64,000 nucleotides of DNA from Thelocarpon superellum (Eukaryota), in assembly GCA_026025795.1 (NCBI GenBank), contig JAPEUG010000029.1, positions 1 to 64,000 of the forward strand, written 5' to 3'. Under the pieces are notes generated by a model. The model had not been told where the DNA came from. It saw only the letters and a list, made by a program, of their open reading frames with translations, and did not search any database. Position 1 is the first letter of the stretch, and each line of letters opens with the position of its first letter. Positions 32,432 to 63,040 of this stretch are shown one piece after another. The translations under genes and the position numbers were made by a program.

Positions 32432-35400
32432 GAGTGTTTCGTGTCACGACGACATGTCCATATCTCTGGCCCTCAATGGCCTCATTTTCTCCTAGTTTCT
32501 TTTCTCTCCCTCTCCGGGGGATGTTTTAGGATTGCATCCGGGTGCGACGGGAGCCATAGCATGCTGGAGCGCATGTTGACGTACACGAGGGCTATTCCCA
32601 CTGAGCAAGGAGTGAGCAATAACGATCGCTGTGACTACACCGGGGTCGCCATATATGTACCGTGATACCTTACCATCCTAGATCCGTTCCGCACATCGCG
32701 ACGACCAACTAATCGACCGACCAACCAACCATCCTTGTACGCGATGATGTGCATGCATAGGTACTCACGACGTCCAGCACCCGCGGGTTGATCCGTCCGT
32801 CCGTCCGTCCGTGCGGGCGTGCGAGCGGGCGGCTAGGCGGGCGGCGACGGCCTCGCATCGAGGCCCGAAATGACAGGGCGAGGGCTAGGATCCAGGATGT
32901 AGGACCTGGATCACGAGATTCGGAGCCGATGCACCCACGGTTACTCCGGGGCCCGCCAAGATCATGGGCGACCCCCGTTATCTGAGAAGGGCTTCCTCAT
33001 CACCTAGGGCCCCCATCATCTATGAGACCCTGCCATTTATAAGGGTCCCTCCATTGGCACGGGTGCTTCGTGATCTTCCTATCTGCCTGGAGTTGGTCAT
33101 ACATGGGGTACTACTTCTTCCTACTACTACGAGGAGTAGCAGCGCTCTTATAGAACCATACGTCCTTGAATCTATCATCTACCCATGGAAAAGTTGTACC
33201 AATGATAGAAACACATCTTTGGTCGGCAGTGGTTGGGGGTGAAGCGCAGCGGTGGCAGGGAGGGGGACTTTGCCTGCCAGTGAGCTTGATCACGGGAGGC
33301 GACAGACGCACCATTGCATGCGTGGGCCCCGCCACGTAGAGTCAGATGCCTGAGTACTACTCGGCTGGTAGCCATTTGAGTGTAAAGGGAGTACGAGAGA
33401 AATTACGAGGCAATCAATCTTTCTCCCCGTGACACTCTGCCTGTCCCTGGGGATGGTGGGTCATTCGAGAAACTCCGCGCGAGAAGAATTGGAGCACGGC
33501 AGCCTCCCAACTATCGTACTAGTAAGGCAGTAAGCACAGCTTGGTGCATTCCATTCTGGGCGACAAAGTCTTGTCGATCACCGGTCGATTCCTAGGATCG
33601 CCAACCCTAAATCAAATCATCCCCATGGCGGCATCGATGTCGCACGTCAAACTATGTAAGAAATGTGCGGCAGGGGTGGGATGAAAGGACCTGGCCTCCT
33701 TGCTACACGTCCCAGTATCTGCTATCCACATTCATGTCTCCGTGTTGGAAGATGCGGGTGGAGAACCTCGTCGCCATACAAACATAGAGCGCTTCCGTGA
33801 TAGCCGACGAATTGACAAGCATGTGTGTTGTAACAGTTGCCAGGTCCGCCCGCGCCGTACAGGTACATCTGTAATCTGAGATGAGCCAAGGTCCTGACCT
33901 GTCTGACGGACGGCTTGCAGCGGAAGGGACGACAAATCTTGGGACACGACCGCATGCTTGTGTATCCGAGTACGACGGTCCCAAGCCGACTACTATGATG
34001 CTTGCCTCACGGCATGGGGGCCGCGGTTCCAGCCTGGTCGGCATGGCGCCAAGCTCGGGCCAGGGTTGCGAAGACGGTGGTGGTTGTGATGCTGGGTGGG
34101 CTGCCAGCTCGTGCCCGGTGGCTGGACGGGAACTGCTCGGCTCGATCGCTCCCAGTCGGTCGCGCGATCATTGGTCGAGGGCCTGACTTGCAGCGAAGAA
34201 GGGCAACCGGATGACGAGGTGCAGTGAGCCTCAACTAGGCTCGGCGACGGAGCACGATGAGTACTCATACCATGAGTGGGAGTCTTCTAGTCGCTCGGGG
34301 CCGTCGCCATGTGCACATCGCGATGCACTGTCAAATGAGCTGACGGCACGCCATTGGCCCGCGGGCTACCGGGTGACCAGCATCGGTCCAATCACCGATC
34401 CGCAGTACCTGTCCGTCCAGGCATGATTCGCCCCGGGGTTGACCCAGCATTCGCTCCTCGCCGCCGCCATCTGGCGGCGACCTTTCCGTCTCCGTTTCAG
34501 ATCCCGCTTCGGGCGGCCCTCGTCGGCTGTGTGACCGACGGCCACCCTATGGGACCGCATGCTCATCTCGACATGCAGCCCTCATGACGGCCTTGCCTCC
34601 AACGACGTTTCCCGGCAGCATGTGCGCGGCACCCACCTGGCACCGGCCTGCACGGTGTATGCGCTCAACATGGCCGGAGACCGCGAGACCCAGCTGCCGT
34701 CAGCGTCTGGCCATGGCCATCTTGGGGTGCCGGCGCCGCCTAGCCCAACCGTCTTAGGCGGGCCACGTTGGTGGCACCCGCCCGTTGGCGGTTGTTGCAC
34801 GGAGCACGCTTCGACATGCCTGGGCTGGCCCCGCGGCCCAGACTGAGCCGTGCACTATCAATGTTCTGCAGCCCAAGTCGGCGCGCCAGGACGCGATGAC
34901 TGCCTCTAGCACCCTGCTAACGACAGGTACGAGTACAGAGAACAGACCACCCCCCTCCCCGCCTCCCCCTTCATGTCCACTCCTCACGGTGCTGCCCAGG
35001 CTGTTTGGAATAGCGGGCACGACAACGAAAGACCGAGGGCGGCATTGCGTCAGCGCGTTCGTGCAGAAGGTGTCAGGGCCCCGGTCGCCTCAGACGGAGG
35101 CGCTTGCCCGCTGCGTAAGTGCGTCGGGCCGTGAAAAGGGACTGGAGACTGGAGACTGGAGGGTTGCCCGGCCCTGGCGAAGAGGGGTACGGGTGCGGAG
35201 TCACCGCTACTTGGCAGGCACGGCAACGCCGATCTTCGCCCGAGCCATCGCGCCGGCCCTGCTTCGCTGCAGATCCAATGCGGGCATGGGTCGAGACTAT
35301 TGACGCAAACCCTCGGATGAAGGCCTTCGGCTTTGCGTAATGAGGGCTGCCCGCGCAAGCTAGCATATAACATACTTCGTAGCCCCCCCAAGCACTGACC

Positions 35401-56584: not shown

Positions 56585-57927
56585 TCAAGCGCCCTTTCCA
56601 CTGGCGCGTGCCGACCGACGCCTTCCTGGTGCGGTTGCTGTGCCTGTCTCAGCACTCCGTTTCGGTTTCTTTGATCTACTCTCATCAGCCGCGACACCGT
56701 TGCCCTTGGCAGCTCCGGCCGCCTTCCGTTTCTTCGTGCTGGGGGACTTAACCGGTGGGGAGACTTTGCCGCTGGAGGTCTTCTTCGTCTCTGCGTGTCG
56801 CGCAGATTGGATTGGCTTGGCCGCGTGCTTGGCCGCGTTCTTGGTCTGGCCCTCATCCTTGATGCCTGTACTCTCGTCCAGATCTTCCGAATCGACCTCG
56901 TCCGCATCGAAGTCTCCCGCCACTGGTCCCGTCTTTTTCTGCACGCTAGGCACCACCGCACTGGTCCGTCCACCGACGGTCAGGAAGATGATCTTGTTGC
57001 CGTTGGGGAGCTTGTTGTCCTTCTTGCCCTTGCCCCATCGATATTTCATCAGCCACTCGGCCGGGAAGGCGTTCGAATCGGCGAGCGTGTCGACGGCGAT
57101 GGTGCATATATGATGCAGGGACTTATGTAGCTGCACCAGTTGAGCGTCTCTCAACGAATCCGTGTACTGTTCGGGATGGATCTTGGCGTGGTAGAGAATC
57201 TCGTCCCTAGCACAAGATGGTCAGTACAACCTCACACAAGACTGCCGGCGCATCAAGGAAAACCAACCCAACCCAATTGCCCACGCCACTGAGATTTGCC
57301 TGGTTCAGCAAAAAGGCCTTCACCGGCACTTTCTTGCTCCGGACCTTCTGCACAAACCAATCCTTCGTCACAAGCTCGCGGTCCTGCACCGGATCCGGCC
57401 CATTTTCGCTGAGAGGAGGAACCTGGCGAATCTTAGTCTGATCGCAATCCAGCAGTCGGATCCGTCCGAATCGACGCGAATCGACAAAGGCTGCTTGGCA
57501 TTTGGGCTCCTCTTTCGTCTCCAAGATGAACTTCCAATATTTTGGAGGCCATGCTTCCTCGGCGCCATTGCCTGACCTGTAGTAGGTCGTATCTTCGTTC
57601 GAAAATTTGATCCATGCTGTCATGCCCAAATGAAACAGTCCGTGGGGAGGTGCGGACATGACGAGCCTAAAAAGCGCATCCCAGTCAGCACCTTGTCACG
57701 AGGTCACGCCGGTGAAACATGCAGGAGGCCGACCAGAAGTATTTCCCTTGCTGTCGCGCATCCAAGACCTTCTTCCCAACCATTCCCTTCTGGAACTCTG
57801 CCGCCGTCGTTCCGACTTTGTTGTAGACGTTCGTGTCATCCTGCACCTTGACCGACGCCAGCGTCTTTCCGACCAGGTGCTTCCGCAGGTAATGCACCAC
57901 TCGCGCCACTTCCCCAATTTCAGGCAT
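56585..57927 (-). CDS. Formamidopyrimidine-DNA glycosylase (Fpg/MutM family), 3 exons
   Basis: Catalytic N-terminus MPEIGEV, QQGKYFW, FHLGMT, DSRRFGRIRL, GPDP, H2TH segment LLNQANLSGVGNWVG|DEILYHAKIHP and VGGRTSAVVP. Basic tail. Confidence 0.93.
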
Positions 57928-61096: not shown

Positions 61097-61153
61097 GTAA
61101 GTGTGAGGCTTTGATGCCGCTGTTCCGTCGTGGGCCACCAGCTGACACCACAG
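61097..61153 (+). other. Putative 5'-UTR intron of SAH1
   Basis: Perfect GTAAGT donor at 61097, GCTGAC branch at 61141 and CAG acceptor ending at 61153. At 57 nt it matches the size of other introns here. Confidence 0.7.
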
Positions 61154-61200: not shown

Positions 61201-63040
61201 ATGAGTGCCCCCGCACACAACTTCAAGGTCGCCGACCTGGTACATTGATCCTGCGGCCGTCCTGGCGTGTGTGGAGGAGAGATCCCAGACTGATGAACAT
61301 AGAGTCTGGCTGCCTTTGGCCGCCGCGAGATTGATCTGGCCGAAAATGCAAGGAGCAGCACCGCCCTCGTGAAGCGTGGCTTTGGCTGACATGTGTCCTA
61401 GGAAATGCCGGCAGGTCTTCTCCATGCGCCAGGTCGGCCGTTACTCATCGTTCAAAGGGATTGATGGCGACGCGGGCCAAGTATGCGAAGGAACAACCTC
61501 TGGCGGGCGCTCGTACGACTTCCCGGGAGCCAAGGATGCCGAATGCTTGCTGACCTCGTCCAGGCATTGCCGGCTGTTTACATATGAGTCAGCTGGATAG
61601 TCCTCGACGGAAGCGTTGAAGCTGTGCTGATGTCCACGTCTAGCCATCCAGACGGCCGTGCTGATTGAGTACGTCTCCGCCCTAGCTCGTCGGTGCGCTC
61701 ATAATGTGACACTGACCGTCGGCAGAACGCTCACCGCTCTTGGTGCCGAGGTGACTTGGTCCAGCTGCAACATCTTCTCCACACAAGACCATGCCGCGGC
61801 GGCCATTGCGGCATCGGGAACGCCTGTGTGAGTGACGGATCGGCCGAGACGCTCCGAGACGCGCTGACTAGCGCAGCTTTGCGTGGAAGGGAGAAACGGA
61901 GGAGGAGTACAACTGGTGCTTGGAGCAACAACTGGTGGCCTTTAAGGATGGGAAGCATCTCAATCTGATTCTCGACGACGGCGGTGACCTGACGGCCCTG
62001 GTGCACGAGAAGTACTCGGAGATGCTCTCGGGGTGCTACGGGGTGTCGGAGGAGACGACGACGGGGGTGCACCATCTCTACAAGATGTTGAAGAACAAGA
62101 CCCTCCTCGTGCCCTCCATCAATGTCAACGACGCCGTGACCAAGTCCAAGTTTGACAACCTCTACGGCTGTCGGGAATCCTTGGTCGACGGCATCAAGCG
62201 TGCGACCGACGTGATGATCGCCGGCAAGGTCGCCGTCGTGGCCGGTTTCGGAGACGTGGGCAAGGGATGCGCCATGGCCCTCCACGGAATGGGGGCCCGC
62301 GTGATTGTGACGGAGATCGATCCGATCAACGCTCTCCAAGCCGCGGTGTCGGGCTTCCAGGTCGTCACGATGGAGGAGGCGGCGCCGATCGGGCAGATCT
62401 TCGTCACCACCACGGGCTGCCGCGACATCCTGACTGGAGCTCACTTTGAGGTGATGAAGAACGATGCCATTGTCTGCAGTGAGTACACTGCCTTGCGTCA
62501 GCCAGGTACGCGGCTGATGACGGCCCAGATATCGGGCATTTCGATATCGAGATTGACGTCGCCTGGCTCAAGGCGAACGCCAAGGGCGTGCAGAACATCA
62601 AGCCACAGGTGGACCGCTACCTCATGAAGAGCGGGCGTCACATCATCCTCTTAGCCGAGGGCCGACTCGTGAACCTGGGCTGCGCTACTGGTCACTCCTC
62701 GTTCGTCATGTCCTGTTCCTTCACCAACCAAGTGCTCGCCCAGATCATGCTGTACAAGTGCGAGGATGCGAAGTTTGGCCAGAAGTATGTCGAGTTTGGC
62801 AAGACGGGCAAGCTCCCCATCGGCGTCTATGTGCTGCCCAAGATCCTGGATGAGCAGGTTGCCCTCCTGCATCTTGACCACGTCAACGCCAAGCTGTCCA
62901 AATTGACGCCCAAGCAAGCCGAGTACCTGAGCCTTCCCGTCGAGGGACCCTTCAAGTCGGACATGTAAGTTGTGATCACCTGATCTCCCATCCCCCGTGC
63001 ATCGGGGTACTGACTCCCGTGCTCCAGCTACCGCTACTAG
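61201..63040 (+). CDS. SAH1: S-adenosylhomocysteine hydrolase, 10 coding exons including a 9-nt microexon (61402-61410)
   Basis: [96 protein letters not shown] and [12 protein letters not shown]. Ends PFKSDIYRY*. Confidence 0.96.

Follow-up and report, generated by a model that had tools for sequence, protein, structure and literature searches.

How is a housekeeping gene spliced when three invariant residues of its product lie on an exon of nine nucleotides, bounded on both sides by introns without a GT donor? This question arises at the end of a 64,000-nucleotide stretch of the Thelocarpon superellum genome (positions 1 to 64,000 of the forward strand of contig JAPEUG010000029.1, GenBank assembly GCA_026025795.1; hereafter the window), whose last gene, on the + strand, encodes S-adenosylhomocysteine hydrolase (SAHH, also SAH1), which removes S-adenosylhomocysteine. 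The fungus is a lichen-associated ascomycete. Rebuilt from the sequence, this gene has 10 exons and 9 introns and specifies 449 amino acids ending in YRY. In this model all introns are 47–63 nt long; seven of the nine are GT-AG, and introns 2 and 3 are GC-AG. Between these two lies the 9-nt exon 3, GAAATGCCG (61402–61410, +), which codes for Glu-Met-Pro (EMP). A preliminary description of the locus had interpreted the arrangement as a weak, tunable splicing module that may couple SAH1 output to S-adenosylmethionine (SAM) and S-adenosylhomocysteine (SAH) status. We consider it probable instead that this is a constitutive-type SAHH gene with adjacent U2-type GC-AG introns around an EMP microexon, missed by the deposited annotation. 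The features are of known kinds met in a new instance, and the gene structure is uncommon but ordinary.

Assignment of the gene to the SAHH family draws on several comparisons. Pfam searches with the deposited Thelocarpon protein (P0002) returned PF05221 at 406.7 bits (cut-off 25) and PF00670 at 276.6 bits (cut-off 27), and an SAHH orthologue matched 49 distinct SAHH sequences in the PDB at E <= 1e-50. Outside the EMP region, the gene product is ~89–91% identical to other ascomycete orthologues. Apart from the two GC donors, all splice sites are canonical, and the coding sequence (CDS) is intact, with no internal stops.

We examined whether the microexon reading is forced by pairing all GT and GC donors with all AG acceptors in the interval 61330–61475, at a minimum intron length of 40 nt, and retaining one- and two-intron paths in which translation runs on without a stop through exon 2 and into exon 4. 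The frame is preserved by 12 paths. Exactly one of them yields AEN-EMP-GLM, and it uses both GC donors. In this path, exon 2 (61303–61347, +; 45 nt), whose last codons read AEN, is followed by intron 2 (61348–61401, +; GC-AG, 54 nt; aat|GCAAGG, branch GCTGAC, CCTAG), the microexon, intron 3 (61411–61457, +; GC-AG, 47 nt; ccg|GCAGGT, branch-like TACTCAT, CAAAG) and exon 4 (61458–61512, +; 55 nt), whose first codons read GLM. Moving either boundary a single base yields CA..GG or GG..AA, and GC-AG is therefore the sole standard choice. Both donors, GCAAGG and GCAGGT, have a U2-type core (purine at +3, G at +5), and the U12-type ATCCTT donor is not present. GCTGAC in intron 2 fits CTRAY; intron 3 has TACTCAT alone, with no CTRAY fit. 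The exon between them is internal, no longer than 15 nt, has an intron at either end and is required to obtain the conserved sequence, which makes it a microexon by definition. The preliminary description had placed the introns and exon at these same coordinates, with the same lengths and the GCTGAC and ACTCAT elements, and had held that LAEN-EMP-GLM can be assembled only through two GC-AG introns; the sequence matches it exactly on the former, and the enumeration bears out the latter.

The enumeration also shows what other transcripts would contain. Retention of intron 2 brings in an in-frame TGA at 61387–61389, and retention of intron 3 shifts the frame and leads to a TGA at 61462–61464; the in-frame stop and the frameshift had both been anticipated. 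Skipping of the microexon keeps the frame and loses EMP, again as previously described, but a second in-frame alternative that is present in the public annotation, the GT-AG path 61369–61457, had been overlooked. This is the lone GT-donor path among the 12; the other 10 use GC donors and give aberrant peptides. A shorter candidate, a 33-nt GT intron at 61369–61401, would deliver EMP preceded by seven extra residues. We rejected it, since none of the 30 reference introns is this short (minimum 43 nt) and the second GC donor would still be required.

The overlooked path deserves attention because it is the one that reached the databases. A CDS rebuilt with a single 89-nt GT-AG intron at 61369–61457 (+; ctc|GTGAAG to CAAAG) reproduces P0002 exactly. 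This deposited protein has 453 residues and equals our rebuilt model over its first 28 and last 418, the sole difference being ARSSTAL in place of EMP. In the deposited annotation, exon 2 runs 21 nt further to the nearest GT and the microexon is skipped. The cause looks like a predictor unable to use GC donors. Mis-modelling of GC-AG introns by gene predictors is a failure class documented since 2006 (Rep et al. 2006, as quoted in the excerpted text of PMC8703528).

Could the deposited model nonetheless represent the real mRNA, with SAHH carrying ARSSTAL at this position? It is the public annotation, it takes the sole frame-preserving path with a GT donor, and its branch region and acceptor are those of the second GC intron. 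Conservation speaks strongly to the contrary. Among the best 120 matches, 104 fungal and related SAHH models span the N-terminus, and EMP is present in 102 of them; the two without it are P0002 itself and the model of Sarcosagium campestre, P0089. A degenerate DNA pattern for AAFGR..EI..E, run against bacterial and archaeal contigs, gave at least 120 matches, and in all 120 bacterial SAHH loci listed the motif is uninterrupted and followed by EMP; none of these 120 is an interrupted, fungal-type gene. EMP also occurs in both PDB alignments shown, which are of animal structures. We then scored all paths on an N-terminal profile built from 97 orthologues that matched the anchor expressions, out of 118 left after P0002 and P0089 had been excluded. 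The EMP path scored 119.6 bits and the deposited path 97.2, which is 22.4 bits lower; the other ten paths ranged from 87.5 to 102.9. The splicing signals of the deposited intron argue in the same direction. Its donor lacks G at +5 and, at -5.22 bits, falls below all 30 reference donors, and its 89 nt exceed the length of 28 of the 30 reference introns. Finally, an intact GAAATGCCG between CCTAG and GCAGGT, inside what would be an intron, would be an unexplained coincidence. We regard the deposited model as a very improbable account of the mRNA. Judged by orthologue conservation, the deposited protein record is wrong at the EMP site, and its annotation needs correction.

Several observations nevertheless weigh against a straightforward constitutive gene. 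We compared donors with a matrix built from 30 GT introns of the window, excluding positions +1/+2. The GC donors of introns 2 and 3 scored 0.8 and 1.93 bits, respectively, within one standard deviation of the local GT mean of 2.87 (s.d. 3.24), a comparison that is partly circular because 24 of the 30 reference introns had been chosen by a rule rewarding R at +3, G at +5 and T at +6. GC donors usually carry better-than-average context. Here, they are not offset in this way. Intron 3 raises a further difficulty, as it combines three weak signals: it is the sole intron of the nine without CTGAY and the sole one with an AAG acceptor, and its donor has G at +4. Its removal may for this reason be inefficient or in part alternative. 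In addition, the one protein that database searches returned at more than 90% identity was the deposited model, and no transcript-derived protein of this species was among the results. The lengths of the GC introns are unremarkable, 54 and 47 nt lying inside the local intron range of 43–106 nt.

These weak signals bring up the possibility that the EMP mRNA is made alongside a sizeable fraction of transcripts with a skipped microexon, a switch to the 61369 donor or a retained intron, as noise rather than control. Both introns have weak signals, and several in-frame paths compete. Very short exons make it hard for the splice sites at either end to be recognized at the same time, and 9 nt is tight by this standard. 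SAHH, on the other hand, is a highly conserved housekeeping enzyme, and the 89–91% identity elsewhere in the protein would argue for efficient expression. On balance, we think a mixed output of this kind unlikely.

A more trivial explanation is that assembly or consensus errors turned two GT donors into GC, or that this copy is a decaying pseudogene. The genome is metagenome-derived (a metagenome-assembled genome, MAG), which lends the idea some plausibility, but it needs two independent T-to-C errors exactly at +2 of neighbouring donors. The remainder of the 449-residue CDS has no stops and its other splice sites are canonical. The independently assembled Sarcosagium genome provides a third counterargument, since its model also implies GC after the Asn codon. 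Together, these points make an artefact exceedingly improbable.

The Sarcosagium model is informative in its own right. P0089 (429 aa) reads AEN-A-R-N-A and then RIAGCLHM, without EMP and 17 further residues, and it lacks the YRY tail as well. As Ala is encoded by GCN, the sequence downstream of the Asn codon in Sarcosagium would begin with GC. The first GC donor thus appears to be common to Thelocarpon and Sarcosagium, whose predictor evidently had no usable donor there, and the deposited Sarcosagium SAHH is probably mis-annotated likewise. Both genera are among those placed in the redefined Lichinomycetes, according to the available excerpt of PMC12238968; NCBI taxonomy lists T. superellum in Thelocarpales, Pezizomycotina. 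Sarcosagium ranks only 33rd by SAHH identity to Thelocarpon (88.7%), the protein being too conserved to resolve the nearest relative of Thelocarpon by identity. Three other fungal records (P0064, P0086 and P0091) resemble uninterrupted genomic translations, with a leader sequence and in-frame intron-like insertions elsewhere, and in all three AE-x-EMPGLM is contiguous. Introns flanking EMP are thus not general in ascomycete SAHH and would be lineage-restricted. The insertions in these records suggest introns at HM|T and VC|N and none around EMP.

How unusual is a pair of GC donors? Among the fungal introns annotated to date, 1.009% are of the GC-AG type in Table 1 of PMC7072748, in keeping with the small minority described for them beforehand. 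At this fungal mean and assuming independence, the chance that a given pair of adjacent introns are both GC is ~1e-4, a figure calculated post hoc. The adjacency of the two donors is explained neither by chance nor by a neutral reading of the gene, and this too counts against the constitutive interpretation. The window itself offers few comparisons. A conservative gene finder called 24 GT introns and 1 GC intron (23 GT and 1 GC outside SAHH) and made 2–5 calls for each control dinucleotide, which places the single GC call at noise level. That call, 57751–57667 (-), was rejected, as a GT donor at 57733, 18 nt downstream, fits better and keeps residues inside a Pfam Fapy_DNA_glyco match; this match spans all 64 residues of the exon at the 57733 donor (-). 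Outside SAHH, then, none of the 24 modelled introns needs a GC donor, a sample too small to give the genome's own rate. The earlier assertion that all other reconstructed introns have GT donors is upheld for the seven remaining SAHH introns and, with this reassignment, for the introns modelled elsewhere in the window. Other survey approaches proved less discriminating. A coding-flank filter applied to 16 donor dinucleotides and a signal-only scan both failed to separate GT from controls and were dropped, as was a first version of the gene finder that produced spurious intron chains (129 GT and 127 GC). We also searched the window for second copies of the nine SAHH introns and found none beyond chance matches of 11–15 nt; the two GC introns are unlike each other. 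An origin by introner activity or duplication is thus not indicated.

We next considered regulation, the interpretation originally offered for this locus. It holds that weak GC donors make SAH1 output depend on the state of the spliceosome, for example on SAM-dependent N6-methyladenosine (m6A) in U6, with retention or skipping tracking methylation potential. A number of features are compatible with it. The GC donors have average to slightly below-average contexts as well as C at +2, and intron 3 has a weak branch site and acceptor. Retention of either intron introduces a premature stop, so mis-splicing would lower SAHH output. Two adjacent GC donors are beyond chance, and the first is apparently common to Sarcosagium. 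With A at +4 and an exon end other than AAG (aat|), the first donor also belongs to the class that loss of U6 m6A affects most in Schizosaccharomyces pombe in the excerpted text of PMC8163875. According to the same excerpts, introns with A at +4 are the commonest class in that yeast (2,539 of 5,056) and the most sensitive to loss of U6 m6A; introns with G at +4 are reported as less strongly affected, and those with T at +4 form the group with the smallest change.

Closer inspection provided no support for SAM/SAH-tuned splicing of SAHH. The 136 nt from 61335 to 61470 show no sign of a structured RNA element (z = +0.49; their folding stability was equalled or exceeded by 138 of 200 shuffles), and there is no Rfam match between 60600 and 63400 at E up to 1. 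The UACAGARAA-type METTL16 motif is absent from the SAHH gene; its 1 match in the window, at 34934, is at chance level, at least 1 match having occurred in 21 of 100 shuffles. The argument from A at +4, advanced in the preliminary description, holds only in part: GCAAGG does have this base, but GCAGGT carries G instead, and A at +4 is unspecific, occurring in five of the nine SAHH donors and roughly one in two S. pombe introns. EMP is contiguous with its neighbours in the three read-through fungal records, and standard predictors kept it in 102 of 104 models. Our literature search returned no report of splicing control or microexons in fungal SAHH. A regulated module is thus quite unlikely in our estimation. 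We also entertained a more specific version, in which the two uncompensated GC donors were selected in the Thelocarpon/Sarcosagium lineage as a kinetic valve. Ordered removal and slow use of the 5' splice sites would set the amount of productive SAHH mRNA, with premature-stop or EMP-less products taking the rest, and the first donor, with its A at +4 and weak exon end, would tie this fraction to SAM-dependent U6 m6A. We hold this version to be very doubtful.

Returning to the constitutive interpretation, we propose that productive mRNA of this single-copy-type T. superellum SAHH gene would be formed by removal of nine short introns, of which 61348–61401 and 61411–61457 would be a U2-type GC-AG pair flanking the 9-nt exon for the invariant Glu-Met-Pro. 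The two GC introns would be excised one after the other, each recognized as a unit by intron definition; we infer sequential removal because the exon is only 9 nt. Use of these junctions and constitutive splicing are likewise predicted from the genomic sequence. The GC donors themselves would be tolerated, lineage-restricted variants of ordinary donors, with no dedicated sensor.

Comparison with known systems places the arrangement among familiar features. U2-type GC-AG introns of filamentous ascomycetes, as described through PMC8703528 and PMC7072748 (both in excerpt), likewise have GC at +1/+2, a 3' AG, A at +3, G at +5 and short length, and they too are mis-modelled by predictors; they have a branch site near the 3' end, for which intron 3 offers only the branch-like TACTCAT. 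Relative to these typical cases, the Thelocarpon introns differ in being adjacent, in having a 9-nt exon between them and in having a donor context no stronger than that of local GT donors. Microexons as such are no rarity in fungi with many introns: the long-read annotation of Coprinopsis cinerea contains 1,165 gene models with an internal exon no longer than 15 nt, and these exons resemble the present one as very short internal coding exons whose omission damages the gene model (PMC12230235, in the excerpt available). The microexon switch of Xlr2 in Trichoderma virens involves condition-dependent inclusion, as far as the excerpt of PMC11121469 describes it; for SAHH there is no evidence of such inclusion, and skipping is in frame and deletes three invariant residues. 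Closest in theme are mammalian MAT2A with METTL16, the 3' splice-site m6A of Caenorhabditis elegans sams genes with METT-10 (PMC8208822) and the U6 m6A/A4 introns (PMC8163875), which, in the excerpts consulted, share with this locus a methyl-cycle gene, mis-splicing that would lead to premature stops and, in one donor, A at +4 with a weak exon end. SAHH differs from MAT2A/METTL16 and sams/METT-10 in having no METTL16-type motif or hairpin, in not being a SAM synthetase and in having G at +4 in the second donor.

The remainder of the gene is more conventional. All of its elements are on the + strand. Exon 1 (61201–61239, 39 nt) starts at the ATG, and the first 28 residues of the protein equal those of P0002; intron 1 (61240–61302, 63 nt) is GT-AG, with ctg|GTACAT, branch CTGAT and TAG. 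Downstream of exon 4, five GT-AG introns, at 61513–61563 (intron 4, 51 nt), 61588–61643 (intron 5, 56 nt), 61669–61725 (intron 6, 57 nt), 61828–61876 (intron 7, 49 nt) and 62479–62528 (intron 8, 50 nt), separate exon 5 (61564–61587, 24 nt), exon 6 (61644–61668, 25 nt), exon 7 (61726–61827, 102 nt), exon 8 (61877–62478, 602 nt) and exon 9 (62529–62964, 436 nt). Exon 8 is 100% identical to P0002 over 200 aa. The 5' part of the gene (61201–61830) is unusually intron-dense: its first 100 codons are interrupted by 7 introns, and three of its exons measure only 9, 24 and 25 nt; the same stretch has at most 1–2 introns in the three read-through records (P0064, P0086 and P0091). A candidate 57-nt intron lies in the 5' leader at 61097–61153 (+), upstream of the ATG at 61201, with a GTAAGT donor, GCTGAC and an ACAG acceptor. 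Antisense to exon 8 runs a 278-codon open frame (61731–62567, -), which is expected in coding DNA of 60% G+C and is not a gene by any evidence.

The 3' end of the gene offers a parallel to the microexon. Intron 9 (62965–63027, +; GT-AG, 63 nt) has the donor cat|GTAAGT, and reading through it gives M and then a stop. Exon 10 (63028–63040, +) is only 13 nt long and supplies the third base of an Ile codon, the codons for YRY and the stop TAG. This terminal exon of ascomycete SAHH is thus a second case, within one gene family, of a very short coding exon frequently overlooked by automated models, but here its intron is GT-AG and the deposited Thelocarpon model is correct. Among the 120 SAHH models listed, 17 end in D/E-M and not in YRY, as expected from read-through into a GTAAGT-type donor; this points to a second recurrent annotation error in the SAHH family.

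The neighbouring gene in which the rejected GC call fell (56699–57927, -) encodes a protein beginning with MPEIGEV; a match to the Pfam Fapy_DNA_glyco N-terminal domain (E = 4.1e-15) identifies it as an Fpg/Nei-type DNA glycosylase. The gene has at least two short GT-AG introns, at 57733–57667 and 57267–57207.

The practical value of this analysis is an annotation correction: the deposited SAHH is missing three residues that are invariant across bacteria and fungi. Errors that arise when GC donors and very short exons are ignored propagate to alignments and protein databases. It is also rare for a housekeeping gene to have a microexon between two adjacent GC-AG introns. The locus may provide a natural test case for splicing across a 9-nt exon with weak donors in short-intron fungi. 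Should its splicing turn out to be condition-dependent, this would be the first splicing control of SAHH known to us.

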